Of a DNA stretch of 64,000 nt, positions 290-62,503 are shown piece by piece. This DNA comes from an uncultured Candidatus Rokubacteria bacterium (lineage in GTDB: Bacteria; Methylomirabilota; Methylomirabilia; Rokubacteriales; CSP1-6). The notes under the pieces were generated by a model. The model was not told the origin of the DNA and did not search any database. It saw only the letters and a list, made by a program, of their open reading frames with translations. The position numbers and the translations under genes are program-made. The DNA lies in NCBI GenBank assembly GCA_963747235.1, contig CAVVEU010000040.1, positions 384,001-448,000 of the forward strand, given 5' to 3'. The first letter of the stretch is position 1. Each line of letters begins with the position of its first letter.

Positions 290-338
290 CGCGCACCTCC
301 TCGGAGCGACGAACGGCGCGCGTAGTATAGCAGAACGC

Positions 339-3352: not shown

Positions 3353-3358
3353 GGCCGC

Positions 3359-18235: not shown

Positions 18236-18285
18236 GATTGGCTCACGATACCACAGCGGCCGGCGCGGCTCCGCGGGCCGCCCGG

Positions 18286-20626: not shown

Positions 20627-20642
20627 TAGAGGCTGCGGCCGA

Positions 20643-21335
20643 TCATGAGTGCCCGTCGCCCCCTTGCGATTCGAGCCGGCCCTCGCGCATATGGAGGGCG
20701 CGATCCGCGCGGGCGGCCGCGTCGGCCCGGTGCGTGACGAGGATCACCGAGGTCCCGCGGTCCCGGCAGAGCGCGCGCAGCTCGGCCAGGATCACCGCGG
20801 CGTGGCCTTCGTCCAGGTTGCCGGTCGGCTCGTCGGCCAGCACGAGGGGCGGCGCGTTGAGGACCGCGCGGCAGTAGGCCACCCGCTGCTGCTCGCCGCC
20901 CGAGAGCTGCGCCGGGTAGTGATCCGCTCGATGCGCGACCCCGAGCCGGTCCATGAGGACGCGCGCCTCCGACAGCGCCGACGGCCGCGGGCGCCCGACG
21001 TAGCGCGCCGCGAGCAGCACGTTCTCGAGCGCGGTGAGCCCGGCGATCAGCATGAACGACTGGAAGACGTACCCGATGGAGCGCCCCCGCACCCCGCACT
21101 GGGCGCGGCGTGAGAGCCGGCTCACGCACACGTCGTCGAGCCAGATCTCGCCCGCGTCGAGCGGCTCGAGCAGCCCGAGCAGGTTCAGCAGGGTGGACTT
21201 GCCGCAGCCCGACGGTCCGGCCACCGCCACGAACTCGCCCGCCTTCACCTCCACGTCCACGCCGCGAAGCACCGGGACCGGCCGGCCGTCGGGGCCGCGG
21301 AACGTCTTGGTGAGCCCGCGCGCGCGGACGATCAC
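20643..21335 (-). CDS. ABC transporter ATP-binding protein (LolD/MacB type)
   Basis: GPSGCGKST, LSGGEQQRVA, LADEPTGNLD, VTH. Confidence 0.92.
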   Translation of the reverse strand: MIVRARGLTKTFRGPDGRPVPVLRGVDVEVKAGEFVAVAGPSGCGKSTLLNLLGLLEPLDAGEIWLDDVCVSRLSRRAQCGVRGRSIGYVFQSFMLIAGLTALENVLLAARYVGRPRPSALSEARVLMDRLGVAHRADHYPAQLSGGEQQRVAYCRAVLNAPPLVLADEPTGNLDEGHAAVILAELRALCRDRGTSVILVTHRADAAARADRALHMREGRLESQGGDGHS

Positions 21336-21337
21336 CT

Positions 21338-26003: not shown

Positions 26004-27256
26004 GTATCCGCTCGGCTCGCCTTCGGCTGCGCCTCGCCCAACTCGGCTTCTCGAAGATCGAGGCTCACGTTCTGGCCGCCGAAGCCGAACGAGTTCGACA
26101 GCGCGGCGGTCACATCGGCGGGGCGCGCGACGCCGGGCAGGCAGTCGAAGGGCACGTCGGGATCCACCTGCTCGAGGTTCGCGGTCGGCGGCAGCAGCCC
26201 GTGCTGGAGCGCCAGGATCGTGGCGGTCGCCTCCACGCTGCCCGCCGCCGCCATCGTGTGGCCCACCAGCGACTTGGTGGAGCTGACCAGCACGCCGCCC
26301 TCGCCGAAGACGCGGCGGAGGGCCAGCGCCTCCGCGCGGTCGTTCTGCGGAGTGCCGGTGCCGTGGGCGTTGACGTAGCCGACCTCGCGGGCGTCGAGCC
26401 CGGCGGCGTCCAGGGCCTGCTGCATCGCGTGGATCATCCCCTCACCTTCGGGATGCGGCGCGGTGACGTGATACGCGTCGGTGGTCATCCCGTAGCCGGC
26501 GAGCCGCGCGTGGACACGCCCGCCGCGCGCCCGGCAGTGCTCCGCGTCCTCGATGACCAGGAACGCGGCGGCCTCCCCGATGGACATCCCGCGCCGATCG
26601 CGGTCGAACGGGCGACACGGCGTGGGATCGAGCAGCTTGAGCGCGTTGAAGCCCATGAAGCAGATGTGGGTCAGCGCGTCCACGCCCCCCACCAGCGCGG
26701 TCGGCGTCACGCCGGCGCGGATGAGATCGGCGCCCAGCGCGATCGAGGCCGCGCCGGAGGCGCAGGCCATGACCACCGTCTCCTTCGGCCCGGTGAGGCC
26801 GAGGCGCCAGCCGAGGGTCTCGGCGTGCGAGAACGGCAGGATCGAGCGCAGCGCGCCCATCCGCGAGGAGGGGCGGCCGCGCGCGACGTCCCAGTACCAG
26901 CCCTCGCCCTCGAGCATGCCGCCGCCGACCGCGCCGACGAGCAGCGCGGCCTCCCGGCGCGCGGCGCCCTCGAGGCCCGCGTCGGCCAGGGCCTCGCCCG
27001 CGGCCGCGAGCGCGATCCGGTCCGCGCGCGAGCGGCGGCGCGACGAGCCGAGCGTGGCGATGACCTCGGCGGGAATCTCGGCCGCGATGCGCGAGCGAAA
27101 GCCCTCGGTCTCGATGACGGTGATGGGCTTGATCGCGCAGGTGCCGGCGGCGAGCCCGCTCCAGAAGCTCTTCACCCCGGCCCCGTAGGGACTCACGATC
27201 CCGAGGCCGCTGACCACGACCTCCGCCCGGCCGTCGCGGGCCGCCGACCGGCTCAT
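26000..27256 (-). CDS. Beta-ketoacyl-ACP synthase (FabF/type II KS)
   Basis: MACASG (Cys), NAHGTGT (His), KSLVGHT (His), SNSFGFGG. Confidence 0.92.
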   Translation of the reverse strand: MSRSAARDGRAEVVVSGLGIVSPYGAGVKSFWSGLAAGTCAIKPITVIETEGFRSRIAAEIPAEVIATLGSSRRRSRADRIALAAAGEALADAGLEGAARREAALLVGAVGGGMLEGEGWYWDVARGRPSSRMGALRSILPFSHAETLGWRLGLTGPKETVVMACASGAASIALGADLIRAGVTPTALVGGVDALTHICFMGFNALKLLDPTPCRPFDRDRRGMSIGEAAAFLVIEDAEHCRARGGRVHARLAGYGMTTDAYHVTAPHPEGEGMIHAMQQALDAAGLDAREVGYVNAHGTGTPQNDRAEALALRRVFGEGGVLVSSTKSLVGHTMAAAGSVEATATILALQHGLLPPTANLEQVDPDVPFDCLPGVARPADVTAALSNSFGFGGQNVSLDLREAELGEAQPKASRADT

Positions 27257-27291
27257 GCCACGCTCATCGCCCGGGGCTGGGCCTCGAGCCC

Positions 27292-27573
27292 TCAGGCCTG
27301 GCCGTTCTTGGCCAGGATGAACCGGGACAGGGAATCCAGCGAGAGGAACTCGTCCGTGAGGTCGTGGGCCTCGTCGATCGTGATCCCGAAGCGCTCCTCG
27401 ATGGCCACCGACAGCTCGATGAAATCGAGCGAGTCCAGGCCCAGCGAGCCGTCGACGCCCTTGGGGAGCGTCGTCTCGAGCGTCATCTCGGCCGCCCGGC
27501 GCGGGTCGAACTTGAGCCGCTCGACGACGAGCCCCTTCAGCTCGTCCAGGACTTCCTTCTGCGTCATCGACAC
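27292..27573 (-). CDS. Acyl carrier protein
   Basis: LGLDSLDFIELSVAIEERFGI phosphopantetheine attachment motif; acidic, ~91 aa. Confidence 0.92.
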   Translation of the reverse strand: MSMTQKEVLDELKGLVVERLKFDPRRAAEMTLETTLPKGVDGSLGLDSLDFIELSVAIEERFGITIDEAHDLTDEFLSLDSLSRFILAKNGQA

Positions 27574-27583
27574 AACCTCCGTT

Positions 27584-28393
27584 TCACGCCGCGCTGCCGC
27601 GCGCGTGGGATTTCTCCGGGCTCCAGTGGAGCCGCGCCTGCTCTCCCCGCCAGCGTCCCGACAGCTCGACCGGCCCCGTCGTCCCTCGCGCGCGCCAGTC
27701 GCGCAGATCCGCGAGCGGGCCCGCCGCGAAGCGCTCGCCCGGCCCGGCGGCTCCGGCCACCCGCCGGCCGTCGCGCGCCGACTCGAACGAGATCGCGCCC
27801 GCGCCCCGCTCCAGCCACAGGCACGCCGCGGTCTCCACCAGCGGCCACCGATAGGAACGGCGGTGGCGCGCGTAGAGGTCCGCGCACTCCTCGAAGATCT
27901 CGACCGCCAGGACCAGGGCCCGGTCGCAGGTGCCGGCCTCCAGCAGCCGGGCCGCCTGCTCGATGGCCCTGAGCGTCGCGGGCGCCCCGCCGATCAGGAT
28001 CCCGTACGGGCCGGCCACCCCGAACTCGATCGCCACCTCCGCCGGCACCACCGCGGGCGCGGTGTAGGCGAAGTGCATCACCCCGCCCCGGCGCTCGATG
28101 AACGCGCGGTTGGAGGCGCCGTAGGCGGCGGCGGTCACGTACAGCAGCGCCGTCCGCTCGCCCGCGATGGCCTCCCGCGAAGCCTTCCCATCTTCAAGCA
28201 TCGCGTCCACGGCCGCAAGGGCCAGGAGGCATTCGCGGGTGGCGCGCCGGAAGCGGTCGCCGGGGCGGTCCGGACGGGGGAGGGCGAGACGCGGTCACCG
28301 TTTCGTTCGGCTCATGCGGGCGCCCGGAATGGCCACAGCGCCTTGCCTCGGCCGGACAGGATGCCCAGGCCGCGGATCGCGGGGGCGGCGCAT
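27584..28393 (-). CDS. Truncated KS N-terminal domain protein (second chain-length-factor-like; 5' frameshifts)
   Basis: RFRRATRECLLALAAV..., HFAYTAPAVVPAEVAIEFG..GP, no catalytic Cys. Lies between KS and ACP. Confidence 0.6.
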
Positions 28394-29574
28394 CAGGCGG
28401 CCTCGAGGACGAGGGCGCCGTTGCAGCCGCCGAAGCCCATGGACGTGCTCAGCATCACGCGGGGCCGTCCGGGGCGCGCCCGGCCGGGCACGTAGTCGAG
28501 ATCGCACTCCGGATCGGGCTCCTCCAGGTGCAGCGTGGGTGGAATCAGGCCCCGCTGCGCCGAGAGCAGGCACATGAAGGCCTCGAGCGCGGCGGCGGCC
28601 CCCATGGTGTGCCCGAGGCTGCCCTTGATGGAGTTGATCGGGATCTCGTGCGCCCGGCGTCCCAGCGCGCGCTTGAGCGCGGCCGTCTCGATCCGGTCGT
28701 TGAGCTGCGTGGCGGTGCCGTGCGCGCTCACCAGGTCGATGTCCGCGGCCGACACCCGCGCGTCCGCGAGCGCGGCCCGGATGGCCCGCTCGAGGCCGCG
28801 GCCCTCGGGCTCGGGCGCCGCGATGTGGAAGCCGTCGCTGGCGCTGCCGTAGCCCAGGAGCGTGCCGAGCCGCGGGCCCCGCGCGTCGCGCTCGCGGACC
28901 AGCAGGGCGAGCGCGCCCGCCTCGCCCAGGAGCAGGCCGCTGCGGCGCCGGTCGAACGGCCGGACCTCGTCGCGGGTGAGCGAGCGCAGGGCGTCGAAGC
29001 CGCGCAGCACGAAGCGGCAGAGCGCGTCGTAGCCGCCCGCCACCACCGCGTCCGCCTCGCCCGAGCGCAGCAGATCGGCGCCGACCGCCATCGCGGTGGC
29101 GCCGGACGCGCACGCGGTGGACACCGTGATCACCGGGCCGCGCGCGCCGAGCCAGCGCGCGAGGGCCCAGCCCGGGCCGTCGTAGAGCGCCTGGGACAGC
29201 CGGCGGCGGTCCCGGTCGCCCGCGAGCGCCTTCTCGCCTTCCTCCACGCCGCCGAGGGCGGTGCCCACCACCACCCCGACCCGCGCCGGATCGAGCGGCA
29301 GTGGGCGGAACGCGGCCTGCGCGCAGAGGTCGTCGGCCGCCGCGATCAGCAGGCGGCTCGCGCGACAGTCGGGCACGCCGCGCCAGTCCTTGATGCGGCC
29401 GAGCTTCTTGACCTCGCCGCCGCGCTGCACGCGCAGGTCGGCCACCGGCACGCGCTCGATCTGCGAGATGCCCGAGGCGCCGGTGACCAGCGACGACCAG
29501 AAGGCCTCGAGGTCCTGGCCGATCGGGGTCACCACCCCGGCGGCGGCGATCACCACGCGCTCAGGCGTGGCCAC
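28393..29574 (-). CDS. Beta-ketoacyl-ACP synthase (FabF/type II KS)
   Basis: STACASG, SAHGTAT, KGSLGHT, STSMGFGG. Confidence 0.92.
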   Translation of the reverse strand: MATPERVVIAAAGVVTPIGQDLEAFWSSLVTGASGISQIERVPVADLRVQRGGEVKKLGRIKDWRGVPDCRASRLLIAAADDLCAQAAFRPLPLDPARVGVVVGTALGGVEEGEKALAGDRDRRRLSQALYDGPGWALARWLGARGPVITVSTACASGATAMAVGADLLRSGEADAVVAGGYDALCRFVLRGFDALRSLTRDEVRPFDRRRSGLLLGEAGALALLVRERDARGPRLGTLLGYGSASDGFHIAAPEPEGRGLERAIRAALADARVSAADIDLVSAHGTATQLNDRIETAALKRALGRRAHEIPINSIKGSLGHTMGAAAALEAFMCLLSAQRGLIPPTLHLEEPDPECDLDYVPGRARPGRPRVMLSTSMGFGGCNGALVLEAA

Positions 29575-30467
29575 CGGGCGGGCTCCAGGCGTCGAAGAAG
29601 TTGAACCACTGGGTCGGGTAGGCGCGGATCACGCGCTCGAGCGCGGCGACCACGGTGGCGAGGCCGGCCTGCTCTTCCCCGGGCTTCACCCAGATCGGCG
29701 GATCGATCTCGAGCCGGTAGCGTCCGCCCGGCGCCATCGCGCAGAAGGCGGGGACCACCGCCGCGCCCGCCGCGCGCGCCAGCACGAAGGGCCCCAGCGG
29801 GAACGCGGCGGGCTCGCCGAAGAAGGGCACGATCGCGTCGCCGCGCCCGCCGCTGGGCCGGTCCGCCTGCATCGCCACCAGCTCGCCGCGCCGGAGCGCG
29901 GCCAGCAGCCCGAGGGTGGACGTCGCGTGATGCCGCGTCACGAAGCGGAGCTGCGGGCTGTCGAGCCGCAGGTAGCGCTCGAGCGCCGCGTCCTGCTCGG
30001 CGGAGAGCACCACGTGGGCGGTGCGGCCACCCCGGGAGGAGAGGAGCCGCCCCGCGAACTCCCAGTTGCCGAGGTGCGCGGTGAGCAGGACCACGCCCCG
30101 CCCCGCCGCGATGGCCGCGTCGAGATGATGCTCACCCTCCGCGGAGGCGACGTAGTCGCGGAGATCGGCGCCAGGGCGGCGATTGAGCGTCAGCAGATCC
30201 GCGAAGAACGCGCCGAAGTTGGCGAAGGTCTCGCGCACCCGCGCGTCGATCACGCCCGGCGGCGCGCCCGCGAGCACGCGGCCGAGATTGCTCCGCACCG
30301 CGCGGCGCTCGGCGGGCAGGGCGCGCGCGAGCAGCCGGCCGAGGCCGCGCGCGAGGCGCAGGCGCGCGGGCCGCGGCAGCGCCGCCGCGGCGGCGGTGGC
30401 CAGCCGGTAGTAGCGCGACACGGTTCAGCCCGTGCGAGTACCAGTCGGGCGCGGGCTCGCTCGCCAT
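29561..30467 (-). CDS. LpxL/LpxP-family (lysophospholipid) acyltransferase (5' frameshift)
   Basis: GRGVVLLTAHLGNWE, MQADR, VPFFG..A.FP.GP, YPTQWFNF. Confidence 0.88.
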
Positions 30468-30471
30468 CAGC

Positions 30472-31246
30472 CTAGAGCAGCGCCCAGTAGTACATGCGGA
30501 ACGCCCGGATCGGCCCCGGCTCGGTGTCGTGGAGCCGGCTCGCCTCGAAGCGGCGCTCGACCCGATCGAAGGTGACGCGCCCGGGCTCGGCGGGATCGTT
30601 CGGATCGTAGACCGAGAAGCGCACGTTGCCGGCCGCGTCGAGCGTGTACGCGTACGCGAGCACGGTGTGGTTGAGCTCCCACGTGGGGAAGTTCGTCACG
30701 AGAAACTGCACCGGCCGACCCTCGGCCAGCTCGGCGAGCGTCTCGCGCGCGACCCGCTCCTGCTGCCAGCGCGGCATCGGGAACACCACGCGCCAGTTGG
30801 TCCAGTGCACGAGGGTCCAGAATCGCCCGACCATCCCCTCCTTCACCGCCGCCTCCTGGGCGCGGGAGAACTCGTGCAGCGAGGCGTAGCCGGGGATCAC
30901 GATCCGCCGGTCGGCGGGCCACGGCTCGTCCCAGGGAGCGATGGCGACCACCTGCTTGACGCGCGCGACGTACTCCTCGGGCGTCGAGCCGGGGCGCGGC
31001 GGGCTCGAAGCGGGCGAAGCGCTGGAACTGCGTGACCGCCCGCACCATCACGAAGCAGTAGTTGGCGTAGAGGTCGGGCTTGCCGGGATTCTTGCTGCGG
31101 CTCTCGTTGGCGAACGCGAAGGTGTCCACCCCGAAGCGCAGCAGGTCGGGCGGGGCCGGGCGGCGCACCGCCGCGTCGATCGGGGCGACCGACGCGCAGC
31201 CGGACACCGCCAGAGCCACCAGGAAGAGTCGCGTCGACGCCCACAT
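30472..31246 (-). CDS. Hypothetical lipoprotein (frameshifted)
   Basis: Lipobox LAVSGC, then DTFAFANE, YANYCFVM, LNHTVLAY, VYDPNDP. The Cys/His/Asp arrangement is reminiscent of papain-like folds. Confidence 0.6.
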
Positions 31247-31271
31247 CACGCGTCGTGCAGTGTACCGCACT

Positions 31272-32036
31272 TCAGCCCTGGATCGAATAGCCTCCGTCCA
31301 CCGGAATCGCGGTTCCGGTGACGAAATCGGAGGCGGGCCCGCCGAGAAACACCGCGACGCCGGAGAGATCGTCGGGCACGCCCCAGCGCGCGGCGGGCGT
31401 GCGCGCGAGCACGCGGTCGTGGAGGCCCGCGACCTCGCGGCGCGCGTTGGTGGTGAGCTCGGTGTCGATCCAGCCGGGCAGCACCGCGTTGACCTGGATG
31501 TTGTCGCGGGCCCACGCGGACGCGGTCGCCTTGGTGAGCTGCACGATGCCGCCCTTGGAGGCGGCGTAGGCGGGCGCGAACGAGGTGCCGAAGATGGACA
31601 TCATCGAGCCGATGTTGATGATCTTCCCGCCCCCGTTCTTCTTCATGATCGGGTAGACCGCGCGGCTCGTGAGGAACGCGCTCGTGAGGTTGGTGTCGAG
31701 CACCTGGCGCCACTCCGCGAGGGTCAGCTCGTGCACCGGCTTGCGGATGTTCATGCCCGCGTTGTTGACGAGGATGTCGAGGCGGCCGAAGCGATCCACG
31801 GTGGCGCGCACCAGCGCGTTCACCGCCGCCTCGTCGGCCACGTCGGCCTCGATCGCCACCGCGGCGGCCCCGAGCTTGACGAGCTCGGCGACCGCGCCCC
31901 GGCTCTTCTCCGCGTTGCGGCCCGACACCACGACCGCCGCGCCGGCGCCGGCGAGCCCGCGCGCCATCCCGAGGCCGATCCCGCCGTTGCCGCCCGTCAC
32001 CACCGCCACCCGCCCCTTGAGCGCTCCGTCCGCCAC
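31272..32036 (-). CDS. Short-chain dehydrogenase/reductase (KduD/glucose dehydrogenase-like)
   Basis: TGGNGGIG, NNAG, YAASKGG, VNAVLPG, VDGG. Confidence 0.92.
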   Translation of the reverse strand: MADGALKGRVAVVTGGNGGIGLGMARGLAGAGAAVVVSGRNAEKSRGAVAELVKLGAAAVAIEADVADEAAVNALVRATVDRFGRLDILVNNAGMNIRKPVHELTLAEWRQVLDTNLTSAFLTSRAVYPIMKKNGGGKIINIGSMMSIFGTSFAPAYAASKGGIVQLTKATASAWARDNIQVNAVLPGWIDTELTTNARREVAGLHDRVLARTPAARWGVPDDLSGVAVFLGGPASDFVTGTAIPVDGGYSIQG

Positions 32037-32084
32037 GATGCCCGCCTCCTCGCCAGTGTGGTGTGCCGCGCGTGGCAGTCTACA

Positions 32085-32170
32085 GGGGTCAGGTCTTGAA
32101 TTCCGACATTTTCGCCTGGCGCGACATCAGCCCTCGCGTTCCAAAATGTCGGAATTCAAGACCTGACCCC
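32085..32170. repeat. Palindromic REP/MITE-like element, copy 2
   Basis: GGGGTCAGGTCTTGAATTCCGACATTTT...AAAATGTCGGAATTCAAGACCTGACCCC, a perfect 28 bp inverted repeat. Confidence 0.8.
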
Positions 32171-36634: not shown

Positions 36635-39353
36635 CAGTCACCGGCCCTTCGCAAGGACCCGTTGAGCGGGACCTCGGCGGTCAGTCGCACGCCGCGGCCC
36701 GGATGCGTCTCCACCGTGAGGTGCCCGTTGAGCAGGGCGGCCCGCTCGCGCAGACCCGCGAGCCCGCCGCCCCGGCCCGCGCCGAGCACCGCGTCCGGGT
36801 CGAAGCCGGCGCCGTGGTCCTCGACCTGGACGCCCAGCACGTCGTCGGTGGCCCAGAGGCGCACCGTCACCTCGTCCACGTGGCCGTGCCGCGCCACGTT
36901 GGTCAGCGCCTCCTGGACGATGCGGTAGACGCCGGTCTCGGTCTCCGGGGCGAAGCGCCGGTCGAGCCCGCTGTGCTCCAGGTGGACGCGGATCTTGGTC
37001 TGGCTCATGTAGCGCTCGATGTTGTCGAGCAGCGCGGGCAGCACCCCCAGATCGTCCAGGATGCTCGGGCGCAGGTCGAGCGAGAGCGCGCGGATGCGCT
37101 CGAGCAGCTCCTGCACGAGGGCCTGGGCCTGCCCGAGCCGCTCGGCCAGCGCGGGCGACGGCGGCTCGGGCACGTCGAGGGTGAGGCGCAGCCCGGTGAG
37201 GAGCTGGCCGATCTCGTCGTGGAGCTCGCGGGCCAGGTGGCGCCGCTCCGCCTCCTGCACCTCCATCAGGCGCCCGGAGAGCCCCTGCAGGCGGCTGTAG
37301 AGGGTGGCGTTCTGGATCGCGATGGCCGCGTGGTCGGCCAGGCGGATCAGGATCGCCTCGTCGCGGTCGGTGAAGGGGCGATCGGCGCGGTTGGAGACGT
37401 AGAGGAGGCCCTCGACCTGCCCGCTGATCCAGATCGGGACCACGAGGGTGGCGATGACGCCTTCCCGCCTGGCCGCCTCGGGGTAGTCGTCGCGCACCCG
37501 CGGGTCGTCGGGCCGGTTCGCGGTGCGGAAGGGCCGGCCCGTGCTCCACGCCTGGCCCCCCGCACCCCGGCCGCGCACGATGCGCGGCGCGTCCGCCTCG
37601 CCCACCGCGTGGCCCACCCCGTAGCGGGCGAACATCGTGTCGGACTCGACATCCCGGAGCAGGATGTGGGCGATATCGCTCCCGCACAGCTCCCGGGCGG
37701 CGACCGCCACCCGGCGCAGCACCGAGGTGGGATCGAGCGTGGCGGTGATGGTGCGCACCAGCCCGGACAGCGTCTCGGCCTCGACCCGGCGCCGCTCGGC
37801 GTCCGCGTAGAGCCTCGCGTTCTCCAGCGCCACCGCCGCCTGGTCCGCGAAGGCCTGGACGAGGCGCACGTCGTCCTCGGTGAAGACCCGGCCGCTCACG
37901 TCCACCAGGCCGAGCGCGCCGATCACCTGCTCCTTCACGATGAGCGGGACCGCGAGGATGGCCCGGATCGGCGAGGCCTCGAGGAACGCGCGCACGTCCG
38001 GGGAGAACTGCAGGCGCGGGTCGGCCAGGACATTGTTCGAGACCACCGCCCGTCGCTCCGTCACCGCCAGCCCCACCGCCCCGGTGCCGCGCGGAAACCG
38101 CGGCCGCCGGTCGCGAAACGGGCGACAGCCCCGAGAACGCCGTCTGCTCCAGCACGCCCGACTCGGCATCGAGGCGGAACACGGAGGCCGCGAGCCCGCC
38201 GACCAGCTCCCGCACGCAGTCCACCACCCGCTGGGCGACCCCGCCGGGATGGAGGGACTGGGCGAGGGTCTGGCTCACGTTGCCGAGCGCCAGGCTCTCG
38301 CGACGCCGCCGCTCGGTCTCCGCGAAGAGCCGCGCGTTCTCGAGCGCCACCGCGGCCTGGTCCGCGAAGGTCTGGGCCAGCAGAAGATCGTCGTCGGTGT
38401 AGACGCGGCCGAGAGAATCGCCCACCGTGAAGCCGCCCACCACCTGCCCCTTCACCACCAGCGGCAGCGAGAGCACCGACGGGCACAGGGTCTGCCCCGG
38501 GCGCATGCTCGCGGTGGACGCGATCCGGGTATCCACCCGCACGTCGGGCGTGACCACCGGCTGCCGGCGGTTCACGGCCAGGCCGACCACGCCGTGGCCC
38601 GCGGGAATCACGACGCCCGGGTCCCAGAAGCGCTCCGCCTCCCCTGCGCGGCCGATCACCTCGAGATCGCCCGAGCCCGGGCTGGAGGCGGTAGAGCACG
38701 GCGGCGCGCACGCGCAGGGCGCGCAGCACCACGTCGGCGATGCGCTGGCCGAGCGCGACCACGTCGAAGGTCTCGGAGAGGAACCGCCACACCTCCGCGA
38801 GGGCCTCCGCGGTCCGGCGCCGGGTCTCGCTCTCCGCGAAGAGCCGCGCGTTGCCGATCGCCACCGCGGCGTGGCTCGCGAGCAGGTCCACGATCTCGCG
38901 CTCCTCCGCGGTGGGCGGCGCGGTCTCGGAGAGGGCCACGCTGAGCACGCCCATCAGCTCCCCGCCCGCGCTGATCGGCACCCCGTAGTAGACCTTGAGG
39001 CCTCGCTCCTCCCGCCACATCGCGGACACCAGCCGCGGATCGCCGAGCGCGTCGGGCAGCAGCACCGGCTGCCCGCTCTGCGCGACCGCGTGGGTGATCC
39101 CGCTCCCGAAGGGGATGACCTCGGCCACGGTCTCGACGTCAGCGTCGTCGTCGTGCACGCCGCCCTTGGCCGCGAGCCGGTACCCGCCCCGCTCGATGTC
39201 CACCAGGCGCACCACGCAGAAGGCGCGCGGCCGCAGCGAGAGCACCGCCTCCACGACCTGCCGGAGGACGGTGTCCACGTCGAGCGCGCTGGCCACCGAA
39301 CGGGCCAGGTTCGCCACCTGCCGGAGTCGATCGAGGGAAACGTTCTGCATCAC
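36634..39353 (-). CDS. Cytoplasmic sensor histidine kinase with four GAF domains (HisKA_3; frameshifted)
   Basis: Four repeats ending A..AA(V/I)A(I/L).NA.L; ERRHLARELHDEIGQ, QEALTNVARH, DHGAGF, GL.GLRER. Confidence 0.85.
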
Positions 39354-39389
39354 TGCGGATTTGGACGTTAGCGGCCCGCTGCCGCCGTG

Positions 39390-40521
39390 TCAAGCCGTAG
39401 GAAACCGGCCGAGACGCAGGTCCTGGATGTCGAGCGTCGAGCGGCCGTCGAGCAGCACCTCGGCCACCGTCTCGCCCACCCCGGGGGAATGCTGAAACCC
39501 GTGGCCGCAGAAACCGACCGCGAGGTACAGGCCCTCCACGCCCGGGGCCCAGTCGAGGATGGCGCGGCCGTCCGGCGTGAGCGGCCGCAGCCCGGCCCAC
39601 GCGTGGCGCACCTGGGCGCCCTCGAGCGCGGGGATGCGCCGCATCGCCTTCTCGACCGCCACCTCCAGCATGGCCCAGTCCACCTGCGCCTCGTACTCGG
39701 TGGTGGCCCCGATGTCGCCCGGGCTCATCAGGATGGCCCCCTGCTCGCTCCGGCAGTAGAACCCGCTGCCGGTGTCGGTGACGAGCGGCATCGGATGGCG
39801 GATCCCGTCGAAGGCGTCGGTCACGAAGATGTGGCGCCGCCGCGGATCCACCGGCAGCGTCGAGGCCGGCCATCCGGCCGACCAGCGGCGCCCAGGGTCC
39901 GGCCGCGTTGACCACGAGCCGCGTCGCGATGGTGCCCGCCGGGGTGACGACACCCGTCACCCGGCCGTGCTCCAGCGTGATCCCGGTCACCGGCGTGTCC
40001 TCCACGATGCGCACGCCGCGGGCCCGCGCCTGGGCCGCGTAGGCCTGCACCACGTCGTTGGGCGAGGCGTGGCCGTCCATGGGCCCCCACACCGCGGCGA
40101 TGGCGTCGTCCACGTTGAGCGACGGCACCAGGGCGCGCGCGTCGTCCGGCGCGATCACCCGCACGTCTCCGCCCATGCTCCGCTGGAGGGCGACGTTGTC
40201 GCGAAAGCGGGCCAGGGTCGGCTCGTCGGTGATCACGAAGAGGTAGCCCTCCTGGTGGAAATCGCAGGGCACCCCCATCTCGTCCTCGAAGCGCTTGAAG
40301 AAGGCGATGCCGCGGAGGGAGAGCTCGATCTCCACGCGCGTCGCGAACTGCACGCGGATGCCGCCCGCCGCCTTGCTGGTCGAGCCGGCGCCAATAGTGT
40401 CGCGCTCGAGCACCACCACGTCGCGCGCTCCGCGCCGGCCGAGCTGGTAGGCGATGCTGGCGCCGATGGCGCCGGCCCCGATGATCACGATGTCGGCGCT
40501 GCGCGGGAGCGCGGGGCTCAT
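39390..40521 (-). CDS. FAD-dependent oxidoreductase (DAO/sarcosine oxidase beta family; frameshifted)
   Basis: IIGAGAIG, GSTSKAAGG, VNAAGPW, WAGLRPLTPDG, GHGFQHSP. Confidence 0.88.
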
Positions 40522-40533
40522 CGAGCGGTCAGA

Positions 40534-49222: not shown

Positions 49223-50149
49223 CTACTTCTTCTCGCCCGAGTAGATCTTCATCACGGTGTCCAGGAACCGCAGCGCGTGGTCGCGCGGCCGCTGGAACGA
49301 GTTGCGCCCGATGATGGAGCCGAAGCCGCCGCCGTCGCGGATGCCGCGGCACTCGTCGAAGATCGCCTCGTCGTTCTCCTTGGTGGCTCCGCCCGAGAAG
49401 ATCACGATGCGGCGTCCGTTGAAGGAGGACTGCACCACGTGCCGCACCCGCTCGCTGAGGGTGGCCATCGGCACCTTGGCCTTCTCGTAGGCCTTCTTGG
49501 CCTCGGCCTGCTCGATGTGATCGGTGGGCGGCTTCACCTTGATGACGTGGGCGCCGAGCTGGGCCGCGATCTGGGCCGCGTAGGCCACCACGTCCAGCCC
49601 GGTTTCACCGGCCTTGCTCACGTCCGTGCCGCGCGGATAGGACCACACCACCGCGGCGAGCCCGCTGGCCTTGGCCTCCTGGATCATCTCGCGGCACTGC
49701 TGGTACATGATCTGGGCCTGCGACGAGCCCGGGTAGATCGTGAAGCCCACCGCCACGCAGCCGAGCCGGAGCGCGTCCTTGACCGAGCCGGTCACCGCGG
49801 AGAGCGGGTCCTTCTCGTCGTGGAGCACGTCGTGGTTGTTCATCTTGAGGATCAGCGGCACCTCGCCCGCGAACTCGGCGGCCCCCGCCTCCAGGAAGCC
49901 GAGCGGCGCCGCGTAGGCGTTGCAGCCGGCGTCGATGGCGAGCTGGAAGTGATACGACGGGTCGTAGCCGGCGGGGTTCACCGCGAAGCTGCGCGCGGGG
50001 CCGTGCTCGAAGCCCTGGTCCACCGGCAGGATGACCAGCTTCCCGGTGCCGGCCAGGCGTCCGTGATTCAGCAGCCGCGCGATGTTGGTGCGCGTGCCCG
50101 GGCTGTCGCTGCTGTACCAGCTCAGGATCTCCTTCACTCGCGATTCCAT
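49223..50149 (-). CDS. fbaB: Class I fructose-bisphosphate aldolase (FbaB/DhnA type)
   Basis: ILPVDQGFEHGP, GFTIYPGS, WSYPRG, IKVK, GSIIGRNSFQR; own AAAGGAG RBS before ATG 50149. Confidence 0.9.
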   Translation of the reverse strand: MESRVKEILSWYSSDSPGTRTNIARLLNHGRLAGTGKLVILPVDQGFEHGPARSFAVNPAGYDPSYHFQLAIDAGCNAYAAPLGFLEAGAAEFAGEVPLILKMNNHDVLHDEKDPLSAVTGSVKDALRLGCVAVGFTIYPGSSQAQIMYQQCREMIQEAKASGLAAVVWSYPRGTDVSKAGETGLDVVAYAAQIAAQLGAHVIKVKPPTDHIEQAEAKKAYEKAKVPMATLSERVRHVVQSSFNGRRIVIFSGGATKENDEAIFDECRGIRDGGGFGSIIGRNSFQRPRDHALRFLDTVMKIYSGEKK

Positions 50150-50177
50150 GGTGCCCGCTCCTTTCCCGACCCGGAGG

Positions 50178-51181
50178 TCAGCGACGGTAGATACGTCGTC
50201 GGCCGTCGCCACGTCCTCGGAGCTGCCGAGGATGACCGCCGCGCGCTGGTGATATTCGGTGGCGACCAGATCGAGCACGCGCTCGAGCCCGGTGCTCGCG
50301 CGGCCGCCCGCCTGCTCGCAGATCAGGGCCATCGGCGCGACCTCGTAGAGCAGCCGCAGCTTGGCCTTCGGCTTCTTCGGATCGCTCCAGTCCGCGGGGT
50401 ACATGAAGAGCCCGCCGTCCAGCAGGGTGCGGTGCACGTCGGCGACCATCGCCCCCGAGTAGCGGAGCGAGTAGGGCCGGCCCGCCGCCTTGTCCGGCGT
50501 CTTCAGATGCTCGACGAAGGCGCGCTGGCCCGGATGCCACGAGTGGAGGTTGCCCTCGTTGATCCCGTAGGTCTTGCCGCGCCGGGGAATCCGCATGTCG
50601 GGATGCGTGAGCAGGAACTCGCCGGACTCCCGATCGAGGGTGAAGCCGTGCGTGCCCTGCCCCACCGTGTAGACGAGCGTGGTGGCGGGCCCGTACATCA
50701 CGTAGCCGGCCGCGATCTGATCGGTGCCGCGCCCGAGCGCGGCCGGCCCCGCGGGCGTCTTGCCCCTCGACGGCCGCAGCGAGAAGATCGTGCCCACCGC
50801 CCCGTTGACGTCGAGGTTCGAGGAGCCGTCCACCGGATCCGCGCAGACCACGAGGGCGTGCGTGCCGCCCGCGTCCATCTCGACCGGCTCGGCGGCTTCC
50901 TCGGAGATCAGCGCGGCGCACGCGCCGGTCTCCCGGAGCGCGCTCACCATGGTGTCGTGGCCCCAGACGTCGAGCTTCTTGACCTGGTCGCCGGTGGCGT
51001 TGTCGCCGCCCACGTAGCCGAGCTGATCGCGGAGCGCGGCGTGGGCCAGCTCCTGCGCGATCACGGCGGCGACGCGCCCGATACGACCGACGACGGCGGC
51101 CACGTTCCGGGCATGCTCGGTCGAGAGCGAGGCTTGCTGGGTCGAGAGATGTTCCGATAGCGTCATCGGCGAGTCGGCCAT
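50178..51181 (-). CDS. fbp: Class 1 fructose-1,6-bisphosphatase
   Basis: GDQVKKLD, SEE, DPVDGSSNLD, RYSG.MVADVHR, KLRLLYEV.PMA, HQR. Confidence 0.92.
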
Positions 51182-56116: not shown

Positions 56117-56231
56117 CGCTTCCGCGTGTGTAGCATGAATCGGGCGGGGGCGGCAACCGATGGGCGCTTCACACGCGCCCCCGGTCGGTGTCACAATGGC
56201 GTGGGCTCCATCACAGCGAGGGAGGATGCCC

Positions 56232-56690
56232 ATGGCGGCGGATCGATCGTACGTGGCGGAGAACCAGGCGCAGCTCGAGCGGCTCCGCGCCCTCATCGAC
56301 AAGCTGAGCGACCAGCAGCTCGCCGGGCCGATGGAGGCGGGCTGGACGGTGGCCGGCGTCCTGGCCCACCTCGCCTTCTGGGACGAGCGGATCGTGACCC
56401 TGCATCGACGCGCTGGGACGGAGGACGCGGCACTCCGCCGCCGGGCTACGACGAGGCGGGGGTGGACTGGATCAACGACGCGGGCAAGCCGCTCTGCCTG
56501 GCGCTGCCGCCGCGGGTCGCCGCGCGGATGGCGGTGGAGGCGGCGGTCGCCGCGGACGAGCGGCGTGGCCGGCCTGTCGGAGGCGCAGCTCGCGGCGAAC
56601 GCGGCCGCGGGCAGCCCGATCAGCGTGCTGCGCGCCGAGCACCGGCGCGAGCACCTGGACGAGATCGAGCACATCCTGGCGCGCCGCTAG
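56232..56690 (+). CDS. DinB/MDMPI-family protein (frameshifted)
   Basis: GWTVAGVLAHLAFWD and C-terminal EHRREHLDEI metal-binding His pattern. Confidence 0.75.
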   Translation: MAADRSYVAENQAQLERLRALIDKLSDQQLAGPMEAGWTVAGVLAHLAFWDERIVTLHRRAGTEDAALRRRATTRRGWTGSTTRASRSAWRCRRGSPRGWRWRRRSPRTSGVAGLSEAQLAANAAAGSPISVLRAEHRREHLDEIEHILARR

Positions 56691-56773
56691 CGGCGGGCCG
56701 GGACGCGAGGCCTACCAGCCGGTAACCGCACTCGTCAGCCGGACTACCGGGCGATCGACCGACCTGATGCGAC

Positions 56774-57676
56774 TTACCAGCCCGCGTAGATCCCCTCGCG
56801 GGTGGTGGGCGCGGTCCCGCGCGTCTGGTCCCACTGCTTCTGCATCAGGATCTGGTAGAGGCCGATCGAGCCGGTCGCGAAGGCCGCCGACGAGCACGTG
56901 AGGTAGAGGAGCCAGGTCCGGTAGACCTGCTCGCCCACGATCGCGCGCGCCTCGTCCGCGCGGGCCTTGAGACGCTCCGCCCACTGCCGGCACGTGCGCG
57001 CGTAGTGCGGCCGCAGGTTCTCCAGATCGAGCAGCTCCCAGCCCGCCCGCTCCATCTCGGTGAGCGTCTCGGTCACGCCGGAGAGATCGCCGTTGGGGAA
57101 GACGTGGCGATAGAGGAAGTCGGTCTGGCTGGTGCGCTTCCAGTGGAACTCGTGGTGGATGCCGTGGTTGAGGTAGAGGCCCCCGTCCACCAGCATCTCC
57201 TTCACCCGCGCGAAGAACGACGGGTAGTTCGGGATGCCCACGTGCTCGATCACCCCGATGGCCGCGACCTTGTCGTAGCGCGCGTCCGCGGGCAGGTCCC
57301 GCACGTCGCGGTACTCGACGAGGCACCGGTCCTCGAGCCCTTCCCGCTTGATCCGCGCGGTCGCCCACTCCGCCTGCGCCCTGGAGAGCGTGACCCCGTG
57401 GGCGCGGACGCCGTAGTGCTGGGCGGCCCAGATGCTGAAGCCGCCCCAGCCGCAGCCGATGTCGAGCACCCGCTCGCCCGGCTGCAGTCGCAGCTTCCGG
57501 CAGACCAGGTCGAGCTTGTCCTCCTGCGCCTGCTCGAGCTTGCCGTCCGCGTCGCGGTAGTACGCGCACGTGTAGACCATCAGCGGGTCCAGGAACAGCG
57601 CGTAGAAGTCATTCGAGACGTCGTAGTGATGCGCGATCGATCGGGCGTCGTGATCCTTGGATCGAGCCTGTGTCAT
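56774..57676 (-). CDS. Cyclopropane-fatty-acyl-phospholipid synthase family methyltransferase (catalytic domain only)
   Basis: HYDVSNDFY..FLD..MVYTCAY, LEQAQ..KL, LDIGCGWG, IEHVG, HYARTC..W, W..YL..S...F. Confidence 0.9.
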   Translation of the reverse strand: MTQARSKDHDARSIAHHYDVSNDFYALFLDPLMVYTCAYYRDADGKLEQAQEDKLDLVCRKLRLQPGERVLDIGCGWGGFSIWAAQHYGVRAHGVTLSRAQAEWATARIKREGLEDRCLVEYRDVRDLPADARYDKVAAIGVIEHVGIPNYPSFFARVKEMLVDGGLYLNHGIHHEFHWKRTSQTDFLYRHVFPNGDLSGVTETLTEMERAGWELLDLENLRPHYARTCRQWAERLKARADEARAIVGEQVYRTWLLYLTCSSAAFATGSIGLYQILMQKQWDQTRGTAPTTREGIYAGW

Positions 57677-58797
57677 GGCGCCACCTCTCGCATGCCGAAG
57701 ATGGAATCGAACACGATCCGTCGCCGCGCCGCCTCCGAGCCCAGGACCACCCGCACCCCGAGCCGGGCCAGCGCGTCGGGGAGATTCGAGAGCTTCCGCT
57801 GGAGCCAGCCGGCCTCACCGGGGCCATAGCGCGCCACGATCTCCCGCGCATAGCCGTCGAGCGGCGTGCCCTGGCGAATGAGCGCCGTCACGGCCGCCGC
57901 GGCCAGCCGGCCGCTCCGGATGGCGGGCCCGATCCCCTCGCCCGACAGGTCGCGGGCGAGCCCGGCCGCATCGCCGATGAGGCAGAACCGGCGGCCAGCC
58001 AGGCGCCGGGGCGCCTGCCGCCGCACCACGTACGCGTGCCCCTTGAACGGCTCGAGCGGGATCCCGTCCGGCAGGCGGCCCGACGCGCGCAAGCTCGCCA
58101 TCAGCGCGTCGCGCCGCCGGGGCAGGCTACCGTCGCCGCCCTGGGTGCAGCCGACGCCGATATTGATGAAGTCGCGCTTCGGGAAGTACCAGCCGTAGCC
58201 GCGCAGGTCGGGCTCGATGTAGAGCTCGGGCGCGTGCAGGAACGGCTCGAGGCGCGCGACCCACTCGGGCGGCAGCCGCGTTTCGCTCTCCTGCGCCACC
58301 ACGACCTCCTCGCGCCCGGAGACCTGCCCGAGCACGCGCGCCACCGGGCAGCGATGGCCGCCCGCGCCGATCACCACCGGCGCTTCGAAGGCCCCGCGAT
58401 CGGTCTCGACCCGGACCCGGTCCGCCTGCTCGGCCACGTCGGTCACCCGGACGCCCCAGCGCACGTCCGCCCCCGCGGCCGCGGCCCGCTCGAGCAGATA
58501 GTGATCGAACTCGCGGCGGATGATGCCGTAGCTGGTGGGCCGGCGCCAGCCCGTCTCGTGCCGGGCCCCCGCGAACTCCAGCACGCACTGGTCGAACGGC
58601 TGGATGGTCCTCGGGTACTTGTCGGGGTCCACCTCGAGGTCGACGAGCGCTTCCGGGGTCACCCAGCCCGCGCAGATCTTCACCCGCGGGAAGACCGCCG
58701 CGTCGAGCACGAGGGGGCGCAGGCCCGCCAGGGCCAGCCGCCAGGCCGCGGTGCTCCCGCCCGGCCCGCCCCCGACCACGATCGCGTCGTAACTCAT
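57673..58797 (-). CDS. Geranylgeranyl-reductase-family FAD-dependent oxidoreductase
   Basis: MSYDAIVVGGGPGGS, FPRVKICAG, RREFD..L, GYGWYFPK, IGDAAG....SGEGI.PAIRSG. Confidence 0.88.
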   Translation of the reverse strand: MSYDAIVVGGGPGGSTAAWRLALAGLRPLVLDAAVFPRVKICAGWVTPEALVDLEVDPDKYPRTIQPFDQCVLEFAGARHETGWRRPTSYGIIRREFDHYLLERAAAAGADVRWGVRVTDVAEQADRVRVETDRGAFEAPVVIGAGGHRCPVARVLGQVSGREEVVVAQESETRLPPEWVARLEPFLHAPELYIEPDLRGYGWYFPKRDFINIGVGCTQGGDGSLPRRRDALMASLRASGRLPDGIPLEPFKGHAYVVRRQAPRRLAGRRFCLIGDAAGLARDLSGEGIGPAIRSGRLAAAAVTALIRQGTPLDGYAREIVARYGPGEAGWLQRKLSNLPDALARLGVRVVLGSEAARRRIVFDSIFGMREVAP

Positions 58798-59147
58798 CAC
58801 CGCCTCCACAGCGACAGCAAGATCGACAACTTCTGGAGCGGCGTCACCTTCAGGTCCTCGACCACGTTGGCCACGTCCATCGCCCGGAACAGGTCGCCTT
58901 CCAGGTCGATCCGGCTCTGCACGTAGGCCTCGGCGAAATTGTACGGCGAAGGGTCCCGGATCAGGGCCAGGAACGTTTCCGGGCTCTTGATGACCGCGAT
59001 GCACTCGGGCCGGTCCGAGCCGAAGCGCACCTCCTGGCCGTCCCAGAGCCGGAAGGCGAACGCGGCGGGCAGGCTCCCGAAGACCCGTCGCAGGATCGCG
59101 GCGGCCCGGGCGGGAGTCGGGGTGGGGGTCAGGAAGGCCAGCATCAC
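58797..59147 (-). CDS. Stand-alone protein resembling the N-terminal (lipid-binding) domain of cyclopropane fatty acid synthase
   Basis: FRLWDG.EVRFG....IAVIKSP..F..L...P....FAEAYV..RIDLEGDL matches the pattern of Cfa N-termini. Confidence 0.7.
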   Translation of the reverse strand: MMLAFLTPTPTPARAAAILRRVFGSLPAAFAFRLWDGQEVRFGSDRPECIAVIKSPETFLALIRDPSPYNFAEAYVQSRIDLEGDLFRAMDVANVVEDLKVTPLQKLSILLSLWRR

Positions 59148-59863
59148 CCGCGGAGGGTCTTCATGACGTCGGGGTTCTCGAACGCACGCCTGGGCTCTCC
59201 TTCGAAGATGATCTCGCCGCGGTCGATAGCATACAACCGATCGGCCACCCGGGAGGCGGTCATCAAATTGGACTCGGCGATCAGGAGGGAGATGCCCATG
59301 GCCTTGATTTGCTTGACCGCGTCGATGAACCGGCTCACCACCACCGGGGCCAGCCCCTCGAACGGCTCGTCCAGCAGCAGGATGGACGGCGAGAGCGTCA
59401 TGGCCCGGCCGATCGCCACCATCTTCTTCTGGCCACCCGACAGGAAGAGCCCCCGCCGGCCCGTGAAATCGCCGATCTCGGGGAAGAGCCTCAGCACGCG
59501 CTCGTCGATGCCGTTGCCCGCCAGCACCGCGCCCCCCTTCCCGGCGGACCGGGCGAGCGACTGGCTGATGCGGAAATTCTCCGCGACGGTCAGATCGGGG
59601 AAGATCCCCGCGTCCTCCGGCGAGTAGCCGATGCCCGCGAGCGCCCGCCGATGCGTGGGCAGCTTCGTGATGTCGCGGCCCCCGAGGGCGACCCGGCCGC
59701 TGCGCACGGGCAGCAGGCCCATGATGCCGTCGATGGTGGTCGTCTTGCCCGCGCCGTTGCGCCCGACCAGGCAGACCGATTCGCGGTCCCCGACGGTCAG
59801 CGAGAGGTTCCGCAGCACCTGGGCGGGCCCGCGGAAGACGTTCAGCCCCTCGAGCTCGAGCAT
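59144..59863 (-). CDS. LivF-like ABC ATP-binding protein
   Basis: [26 protein letters not shown]. Confidence 0.9.
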   Translation of the reverse strand: MLELEGLNVFRGPAQVLRNLSLTVGDRESVCLVGRNGAGKTTTIDGIMGLLPVRSGRVALGGRDITKLPTHRRALAGIGYSPEDAGIFPDLTVAENFRISQSLARSAGKGGAVLAGNGIDERVLRLFPEIGDFTGRRGLFLSGGQKKMVAIGRAMTLSPSILLLDEPFEGLAPVVVSRFIDAVKQIKAMGISLLIAESNLMTASRVADRLYAIDRGEIIFEGEPRRAFENPDVMKTLRG

Positions 59864-59867
59864 TCGG

Positions 59868-60620
59868 TCAGGCGGTCGGGGCGCCGAGCAGGTTGGCGGT
59901 CACCTGGGGGTGGTTCCGGATCTGGTCCGGCGTGCCGTCGGCCAGGATGGCGCCCTGGTGCATGGCCACGATCCGGGGGCAATAGGTGAAGACCACGTCC
60001 ATGTCGTGCTCGACGATGACCGCGGTGATGCCGCCCGAGCGGACCACCGCGGTGATGATGTCCATGATCGGCGCCTTCTCGCGCGTGCTGACCCCGCTGG
60101 TCGGCTCGTCCAGGAAGAGGAGCTTGGGCCGGAGCGCGTAGGCCACCGCCACGTCGAGCAGCTTGCGCTCGCCCTGGGACAGGCCGCCCGCGGGCGACCC
60201 GGTGCGGGCGTCGAGCCCGAACTGCTTGAGCACCGCCACCGCCTCGTCCCGCACCGCGGTGTCGGCGGCGGCCAGCCTGAACAACCGCCGCGTGCGCCCT
60301 TCGCGGGAGAAGATGGCCAGCGTCACGTTGTCGTGCACGCTCAGCTGGTCGAACAGGTTGACGAGCTGGAAGCTGCGCGCGATCCCGAGCTCGATCTTGT
60401 GGTGGATGGAGGCCCGCGTGATGTCGGCCCCCTGGAACTCGATGCGGCCGGAGTCGGGCGGGATGAGCCCGCTGATCAGGTTGATCAGGGTCGTCTTCCC
60501 CGCGCCGTTGGAGCCGATGAGGGCCAGCACCTCGCCCGCGGTCACCGTGAAGTCCACGTGGTCCACCGCGTGGGTCTCCCCGAAGGACTTGCTGAGCTGG
60601 GTGGTCTTGAGGATGTCCAC
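59868..60620 (-). CDS. LivG-like ABC ATP-binding protein
   Basis: GSNGAGKTT, RSFQ, LSQGERK, DEPTSG, VEHDM. Confidence 0.9.
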   Translation of the reverse strand: MDILKTTQLSKSFGETHAVDHVDFTVTAGEVLALIGSNGAGKTTLINLISGLIPPDSGRIEFQGADITRASIHHKIELGIARSFQLVNLFDQLSVHDNVTLAIFSREGRTRRLFRLAAADTAVRDEAVAVLKQFGLDARTGSPAGGLSQGERKLLDVAVAYALRPKLLFLDEPTSGVSTREKAPIMDIITAVVRSGGITAVIVEHDMDVVFTYCPRIVAMHQGAILADGTPDQIRNHPQVTANLLGAPTA

Positions 60621-61597: not shown

Positions 61598-61620
61598 GGG
61601 CCTGGCTCATGCCTGGGCCT

Positions 61621-62503
61621 TCATGCGCGGCCCAGGATCCCCGCGGGACGGATCATGAGCACGGCCGCCGCCATCAGGTAGAGCACGGCCAGCTCGACCT
61701 CCGGGAAGAACGTGATGCCGGCCTCGCGCACGAAGCCCACCATGAGCGCGCCGATCAGCGCGCCCTCGAGGCTGCCGAGCCCGCCGATGACCACCACCAC
61801 GAACGCGAGGATCAGCGCGTCCACCCCCATGCCGAGCACCGCGCCCTGCTGGGGCACGATCACCGACCCGCCGAGGCCCGCCATGAAGCAGCCGAGCGTG
61901 AAGGCCTGCACGTAGACGCGGTTGACGTTGACGCCGAGGGCGGAGGCCATGCGCATGTTCTGGGACGTGGCGCGCAGCACGACGCCGAACTGGGTGCGAT
62001 AGACGAAGGCCCAGAGCCCGGCGGCCGCGACCCCGCCGATGACGATCACCACCAGGTTGTAGGTCGGGTAGATGGACTCGCCGAAGGTGAGGCTGCCGAG
62101 GCCCTCGTAGAGCGCGCTCGCCTGCAGCGGATAGGGGCCCCAGATGAGCCGCATGAGGTCTTCCAGGATCAGGAGCAGGCCGAAGGTGATGAGGAGCTGA
62201 TACTCCTCCGCGCGGCGATAGAGCGGCCGCAGCAGCGTGGGCTCGAGCACCGCGCCCAGCGCGGCGGCGGCGATCGCGCCGACCGGCAGGAGCGCGTACA
62301 TCCAGATGCTGGCCTCGGTGGCGCCGCCGAGCGCGCGTGCCCACCGCCCACGCGGTCACGTAGGCGCCGAAGGCGTAGAGGTTGCCGTGCGCGAGATTGA
62401 CGATGCGCATGACCCCGTAGATCAGGCTCAACCCGCCCGCGATCAGGAACATCACCGACGCGTAGAGGAGCGCGTTGAGGACGTGGACGACCAGGGTGTC
62501 CAT
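61621..62503 (-). CDS. LivH-like ABC permease (frameshifted)
   Basis: GLSLIYGVMRIVNLAHG, FVVVVIGGLGS, RPAGILG. Confidence 0.88.

Follow-up and report, generated by a model that had tools for sequence, protein, structure and literature searches.

The window analysed here is a stretch of 64,000 nucleotides (nt) from an uncultured Candidatus Rokubacteria bacterium (contig CAVVEU010000040.1 of assembly GCA_963747235.1, positions 384,001 to 448,000). Its minus strand carries a three-gene cassette in which genes A and C, encoding the two parts of a cyclopropane fatty acid synthase (Cfa)-type methylase, lie on either side of gene B, a flavoprotein gene of the geranylgeranyl reductase (GGR) family. 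Gene A (58797..59144) encodes a predicted Cfa N-terminal lipid/membrane-binding domain of 115 amino acids (aa) when read from the ATG at 59144; the 116 aa given in a first-pass annotation of this DNA hold if translation begins at an in-frame GTG at 59147. Gene B (57673..58797) encodes a 374-aa FAD protein, a putative methylene-lipid reductase of the TmpA family, and gene C (56774..57676) a 300-aa Cfa/CMAS catalytic domain without the N-domain. The stop codon of A overlaps the start of B in TGATG at 58799-58795 and the stop of B overlaps the start of C in ATGA at 57676-57673, so that the three coupled open reading frames (ORFs) of the first-pass annotation are all present, as is the 1.1-kb distance by which it separated the N-domain gene from gene C downstream. 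However, a LivF-type ABC ATPase gene upstream of A likewise overlaps it by TGATG, yet no such gene lies directly upstream of A in the neighbour lists of nine related split loci (judged from N-terminal sequence, not from a profile), and the overlaps alone therefore prove little and do not define the unit. No promoter- or terminator-like sites were found at 56500-60200.

By sequence and modelled fold, the product of gene A is a Cfa N-terminal lipid-binding domain (DUF7884) with an SCP2-like fold. It passes the Pfam cut-off for this domain (PF25371, 32.6 bits against 27) and covers positions 5-80 of the NCBIfam CfaB profile (E=1.1e-6). An AlphaFold model built from a 41-row alignment had a mean confidence (pLDDT) of 84.6; its first Foldseek match was the Aquifex Cfa (7qos, E=7e-4), and a wide fold search matched it to residues 4-93 of the L. 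acidophilus Cfa (5z9o) with a Z of 8.0 and a root-mean-square deviation of 2.3 over 82 aligned residues, SCP2 lipid carriers ranking after the Cfa N-domains (Z 4-6). Unrelated models reach Z values not much lower than 8, but the match agrees with the sequence evidence for gene A. The resemblance to the Cfa N-domain proposed earlier is thus borne out, and the segments RLWDG, FAEAYV and IDLEGDL quoted for the small ORF are all found in gene A. A sequence search of the PDB with gene A found no Cfa and returned weak globin matches only. The FAEAY segment aligns with residues 57-68 of E. coli Cfa in a profile comparison that is itself weak (probability 4.5); these residues have been mapped to the N/C-domain interface (PMC11387697).

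Stand-alone homologues of gene A make up 569 of 603 candidate proteins of similar length, and among the matches listed 116 of 120 are 113-115 aa long; the ESM Atlas also holds clusters of stand-alone DUF7884 proteins (107-118 aa). Longer forms gave only six matches among 8000 scored candidates: two of them (P0397, P0398) are intact Cfas, two more (P0396, P0353) look like A-B runs with a frameshift, and P0394 and P0395 are single sequences that join part of A to unrelated domains. None of the six is a convincing natural A-B fusion, although a search of this kind says little about whether such fusions are absent. Where homologues of A and B are named, they belong mostly to Candidatus Rokuibacteriota / Methylomirabilota. 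When compared at equal identity of the catalytic part (the 55-65% bin), the core of free gene A gave a value of 0.42 against 0.35 for tethered N-domains, over 45 and 666 pairs respectively that are not independent of one another. Free gene A is, on this comparison, at least as conserved as the tethered domains, and its most conserved residues are those that it has in common with them.

Gene C is predicted to encode a SAM (S-adenosylmethionine)-dependent lipid methyltransferase of the CfaB/BfaB-type lineage. It contains a complete CMAS domain (PF02353, 306 bits) and its best family profile is CfaB (330 bits, below the cut-off of 650), of which it covers positions 96-393 (E=1.4e-98). Cys37, the DIGCGWG motif, Glu144, His171 and Tyr225 align with catalytic and bicarbonate positions of E. 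coli Cfa, in which the bicarbonate ligands are numbered Glu239, His266 and Tyr317 (PMC11387697). Gene C therefore has the SAM motif and the Glu/His/Tyr ligands by which Cfa/CMAS enzymes are recognised, whereas the N-domain that a canonical two-domain enzyme carries on the same polypeptide is absent from it both in the window and at the nine related loci. Its score against the mycolic acid methyltransferase profile NF040660 (182.7 bits) lies below the cut-off of 390. The first-pass annotation had the gene begin at an I.HHYD motif; the motif is there, but as IAHHYD at residues 14-19, with 13 residues before it.

Together, genes A and C tile an intact enzyme. Aligned to L121, a Cfa from a Methylophaga plasmid, gene A matches residues 1-103 (28% identity, E=1e-15) and gene C residues 126-421 (50% identity), which places the break in the linker, with only the linker missing. 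Whichever half is used for scoring, three intact enzymes come out on top: their N-domains reach 101 (P0397), 79 (L121) and 63 bits (L122) against gene A, with all others at or below 47, and their C-domains 770 (P0397), 770 (L122) and 746 (L121) against gene C, with the next at 671. A and C thus share one ancestor, which argues for gene fission, and the comparison shows them to be the halves of a single ancestral Cfa that was divided in its linker.

Gene B was compared with the published tmpBA operons of Marinobacter, Thiohalospira, Desulfobacter and Desulfobacula, in which a Cfa-like methylase, TmpB, is paired with a GGR-like putative reductase, TmpA (PMC7791843). TmpA has been described as similar to archaeal geranylgeranyl reductases and as non-homologous to BfaA, the reductase of the bfaAB system (PMC7791843). 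The product of gene B passes the cut-off of the GGR family profile TIGR02032 (178.6 bits against 158.8) and keeps GxGxxG, the active-site Cys42 and YxWxFP, motifs whose roles are described in PMC10821996 and PMC12004948, so that its earlier identification as a GGR-type flavoprotein holds. It falls far below the equivalog cut-offs for ChlP (83.5 against 505), MenJ (78.1 against 700) and DGGR (60 against 580), and its closest solved relative is the Thermoplasma DGGR (3oz2, E=4e-32). In tool comparisons with TmpA, Marinobacter and Desulfobacterales loci from the scan described below stood in for the published proteins: gene B and the reductase of the Marinobacter locus L007 share 38% identity over 381 columns (E=1e-67), the latter being regarded as a TmpA orthologue on account of its motifs and the order of genes there. 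Read by eye, the published TmpA sequences share FPR.K.CAGW, GAGG..CPV, GH.Y and GDAAGL with gene B, which has CAGW where canonical GGR representatives have CGGG. On these grounds gene B is assigned to the TmpA family. It has no similarity to the BfaA-type ORF of locus L126 (best E=1.6), consistent with the earlier statement that the BfaA-type reductase belongs to a different flavoprotein family, and no plasmid match was found for it at E 1e-20. A complex prediction for genes A and B (alignments of 77 and 83 rows) scored 0.00 in two runs, which gives no answer either way.

Whether the arrangement recurs is of importance since other genes in the window are broken across frames (e.g. 277-3358, 22525-24491, 36637-39389, 39142-40533, 56160-56690 and 61607-62503), which suggests indel errors in the assembly; genes A, B and C are intact. 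A scan of GTDB with the gene B family motif gave at least 120 stretches, 80 of them with flanks and 40 short. Among the 80 flanked loci an intact cfa lies upstream on the same strand, in the tmpBA order, in 65 (counting a small number in which another gene intervenes or a frameshift occurs, and a single weak match of 94 bits), the A-B-C order is found in nine, and six have no cfa in view, three of these being cut short by contig ends. A cfa-type gene therefore adjoins the TmpA-family gene in 74 of 80. Of the short loci, one shows an A-B junction, six the end of a cfa upstream, and 33 are uninformative. The split loci, a sample chosen through the gene B motif, bear the labels Rokuibacteriota (2), Methylomirabilota, Tectomicrobia, Nitrospinaceae, Binatia, 'delta proteobacterium', 'Proteobacteria' and Nitrosocosmicus. 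Of these, the Nitrosocosmicus locus (L057, Candidatus Nitrosocosmicus) is probably a mis-binned bacterial contig in an archaeal bin, since its genes B and C are 75-77% identical to those of the window and nest among Rokubacteria. Gene A is full length beside B in all nine (108-123 aa, 27-56% identity), C measures 299-316 aa, and the gaps run from -13 to +49 nt; the genes that flank the cassette vary. An all-against-all comparison of ORFs of at least 70 aa across the 80 loci revealed no recurrent fourth gene such as a ferredoxin, a desaturase or an acyl carrier protein (ACP), although small ferredoxins may fall below this size.

The three-gene order, whose conservation had been put forward as a check, is thus kept in nine of 80 flanked loci under several phylum labels. 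The many frame-broken genes of the window could in principle point to a split created by assembly or sequencing error. However, the same layout in nine other genomes and the mostly 113-115-aa stand-alone homologues of gene A, set against so few longer forms, leave that explanation a negligible chance, and recurrence has already refuted it. The first-pass annotation had drawn the same conclusion from the overlaps and the 1.1-kb gap; the conclusion stands, but on recurrence and not on the overlaps.

Phylogenies of B (FastTree on 92 rows, IQ-TREE on 38 of those) resolve three TmpA subfamilies, a Marinobacter type (support 99-100), a Desulfobacter type (100) and the split type to which gene B belongs (93-94). 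These separate from 10 canonical GGR representatives at a support of 100, while their branching order is not settled. All nine sampled members of B's subclade have the split, against none of the 71 other flanked loci. In trees of C (88 and 34 rows), the split enzymes form a clade with the intact Binatia Cfa P0397 (98-99), apart from both types of TmpB. This clade sits within a group of CfaB-type plasmid enzymes and the BfaB-type enzymes of L124 and L126, loci called bfaAB from gene order and motifs; the wider clade with BfaB (97) is mixed with CfaB-type enzymes that have no reductase neighbour. The reductase-free Cfas that serve as outgroup are few (12 loci, 11 in the tree). P0397, a protein of 394 aa, branches within the split enzymes and carries Gln where the bicarbonate His would be. 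An approximately unbiased (AU) test on the 34-row tree (LG+G4) does not reject its placement outside the split clade (p 0.18), and it may hence be either a retained intact form or a re-fusion. An alternative history, with A as the remnant of a truncated TmpB and C recruited afterwards, was rejected, since the two halves have their closest intact relatives in common. Certain Desulfobacter-type reductases have a Marinobacter-type or other methylase as partner (e.g. L005, L008, L028 and L054), mixed pairings which indicate that reductase and methylase partners have been swapped repeatedly. The split itself would have originated when a tmpA-family gene came into the linker region of a CfaB/BfaB-type cfa, which would make it the third independent pairing of the TmpA family with a Cfa lineage.

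The cassette can be set against several known systems. As in tmpBA, a Cfa-family methylase adjoins a GGR-like flavoprotein, and B falls in the same family clade as TmpA; the first-pass annotation had regarded the combination of a methylase with this flavoprotein family as undescribed, which the published tmpBA operons (PMC7791843) contradict. In contrast to tmpBA, where TmpB is one polypeptide encoded upstream of tmpA, the methylase is here divided between two genes that flank the reductase gene, C is orthologous to neither TmpB type, and B forms the third TmpA subfamily. With bfaAB (tmsAB), which makes tuberculostearic acid in actinomycetes, it would have in common the two steps of methylenation and reduction, and the wider Cfa clade that holds C also includes BfaB (45-47% identity), but BfaB is intact and BfaA is an unrelated flavoprotein. 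Judged by sequence, the cassette is a strict member of neither system, differing from tmpBA in gene structure and methylase orthology and from bfaAB in reductase family. The Cfa enzymes of E. coli (6bqc), L. acidophilus (5z9o) and Aquifex (7qos), together with the CfaB type, have both the N-domain fold of A and the catalytic domain of C with its Glu/His/Tyr bicarbonate ligands; in these enzymes, however, the domains are covalently linked and no reductase is needed. The mycolic acid methyltransferases (CmaA/MmaA/UmaA) resemble C as catalytic domains of about 290-300 aa without an N-domain, whereas C scores below their cut-off and has an N-domain encoded two genes upstream. Archaeal DGGR/GGR enzymes (3oz2) share the three motifs kept by B, but not its CAGW, and the DGGR cut-off, like those of ChlP and MenJ, excludes it. 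The only split form of Cfa found in print is an engineered one (PMC9851988; PMC11387697), in which the separately expressed domains of the E. coli enzyme co-purify (PMC9851988). One section of a survey of the CFAS family notes short forms without the N-domain and mentions no separately encoded N-domain (PMC11387697), and no paper on a natural split Cfa or on DUF7884 was found in the open-access literature, a search that did not cover subscription papers or patents. The pairing of Cfa with a GGR-like protein is therefore known, while the natural split and the third methylase lineage appear to be undescribed.

The cassette probably represents the tmpBA pathway for methyl-branched fatty acids in rearranged form. 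In the best-fitting model, which the sequence evidence makes fairly likely, a methylenase is restored from A and C, and its product is reduced by B to a mid-chain methyl branch. A and C would associate non-covalently, in line with the co-purifying domains of E. coli Cfa (PMC9851988), to rebuild a Cfa-type enzyme, with A binding the membrane and phospholipid and C binding SAM and bicarbonate. With SAM as the methyl donor, C would methylate a phospholipid acyl chain at a cis double bond, and the resulting carbocation would lose a proton to yield an exo-methylene branch, as with TmpB and BfaB, and not a cyclopropane. The reduced FAD of B, fed by a host electron carrier encoded outside the cassette, would then saturate the methylene to a mid-chain branch of the 10-methyl type, and the A-B-C order with its tight gaps would co-produce all three proteins. 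Support for the methylene chemistry comes mainly from the 74 of 80 loci at which a TmpA-family gene lies beside cfa and from the tested partners of two other Cfa lineages, which made methylene products; four of the five tmpBA operons tested gave 10-methylene fatty acids by way of TmpB (PMC7791843). Up to now, adjacency to tmpA has thus gone along with methylene chemistry, and methylenation with a subsequent reduction, as first suggested for this DNA, remains the most likely chemistry.

Several observations weigh against this model. The sequence of gene C cannot tell the product, since the bicarbonate ligands are common to Cfa and BfaB. L121 and L122, the intact enzymes most closely related to C, lack a GGR neighbour and are similar to CfaB, a cyclopropane synthase in the description of NCBIfam, and AU tests reject a grouping of the split C with either the Marinobacter-type (p 1e-4) or the Desulfobacter-type TmpB (p 4e-6). 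The ingroup of the B tree was defined by the gene B family motif, and splits of A and C without B could not be seen among loci chosen through that motif. Moreover, TmpA was inactive in E. coli and yeast (PMC7791843), so that the reduction step proposed for B is unproven even for tmpBA, and splitting the E. coli Cfa markedly lowered its activity (PMC11387697, citing Hari 2018).

Some of these points favour a different reading, in which A and C together make up a split cyclopropane synthase of the ordinary kind, with B acting on another substrate (an isoprenoid or quinone side chain, or a plain unsaturated chain) or opening the ring reductively. CfaB is the best profile for C, the relatives just named lack a reductase, GGR-family enzymes act on diverse lipids including sterols (PMC12004948), and TmpA was inactive in the only test found (PMC7791843). 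However, the tie of the TmpA family to cfa in 74 of 80 loci extends over many phyla and three Cfa lineages, most of the tested tmpBA operons made methylene, and B lies far below the MenJ, ChlP and DGGR cut-offs; this reading is accordingly considered unlikely. A smaller chance is given to C working alone on a carrier-bound acyl chain, in the manner of the mycolic acid methyltransferases, with A a relic or doing an unrelated job. About 10% of CFAS proteins are 280-320 aa long and some 80% of those lack the N-domain (PMC11387697), which lends it a precedent, but A is full length beside B at all nine split loci and as constrained as tethered domains, C reaches 183 bits where the mycolic family requires 390, and neither an ACP gene nor any other recurs beside the cassette, all of which makes it very improbable.

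The first-pass annotation had gone further in proposing that A is a lipid-binding subunit common to methylase and reductase. As a free carrier it would hand the methylene lipid from C to B, and this would be the purpose of the split. An SCP2-like carrier fold, the restriction of the split to B's subclade and a conservation slightly above that of tethered N-domains all accord with such a role, which would also explain why the split has been retained although linkage helps the E. coli Cfa. However, 65 of 80 TmpA-family genes lie beside an intact cfa with a tethered N-domain, indicating that these reductases do not generally come with a free one; a single shared origin accounts for the co-occurrence across B's subclade, and the most conserved residues of A are ones also present in tethered domains. 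No sign was found that B makes use of A, and the shared carrier is considered quite unlikely, and reassembly of A and C into a methylenase with B as its reductase remains the preferred reading.

Further pairings and gene arrangements were seen in the same material. In locus L062 (3019-5445, minus strand) a cfa and a TmpA-type gene share one open frame whose cfa end appears garbled, more likely a frameshift than a true TmpB-TmpA fusion. In the plasmid collection, a cfa adjoins a gene for an FAD-dependent monooxygenase in Mesorhizobium (L123, 382-2870) and for an FAD-binding oxidoreductase in Variovorax (L128, 1674-4248), which are possibly further methylase-redox pairings. Elsewhere on the minus strand of the window, a type II fatty acid/polyketide-like cluster at about 16800-32100 holds several ketosynthase domains, an ACP, a FabG-like reductase, a lipid A-type acyltransferase, a glycosyltransferase, a halogenase-like flavoprotein, a MacB-type ABC transporter and a radical SAM gene, and is presumably akin to aryl-polyene or related lipid clusters. 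One ORF at 49223-51181 (minus strand) contains an FBPase domain and, after it, a class I aldolase domain; the fusion may be genuine, or an indel may have let the frame read through.

The cassette gives stand-alone DUF7884 proteins a candidate role, and the third TmpA subfamily provides new candidates for TmpA reductase activity. Since linkage matters for the activity of E. coli Cfa (PMC11387697, citing Hari 2018), a split kept across lineages is a natural test of the role of the linker. The 80 loci also place tmpBA-type operons in many more phyla than the published set, with examples in Planctomycetota, Acidobacteriota, Chloroflexota, Nitrospirota, KSB1, Calditrichota and Spirochaetota. That the split is itself functional, with the SCP2-like N-domain presenting the lipid to the methylase and then to the GGR-type reductase in a three-protein pathway of mid-chain methyl branching, is a doubtful proposition on present sequence evidence, and just as tentative is the joint claim that such a pathway operates in Rokubacteria, Tectomicrobia, Nitrospinota and Binatia. 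If A does serve both enzymes, the cassette would represent a natural Cfa of two chains, free of the need for a linker seen in the E. coli enzyme, and would be likely to lead to the first TmpA-family reductase with activity. Literature searches for lipid data on the lineages that carry the cassette found none. Within the same phylum, 10-methylhexadecanoic acid is present in Ca. Methylomirabilis (PMC6581649, citing Kool 2012). The presence of this acid fits the phylum, although it is not linked here to the cassette. Fatty acids of the 10-methyl type are used to trace actinomycetes and sulfate reducers in soils and sediments, and because Rokubacteria are common in soil, the cassette would widen the possible sources of these markers.

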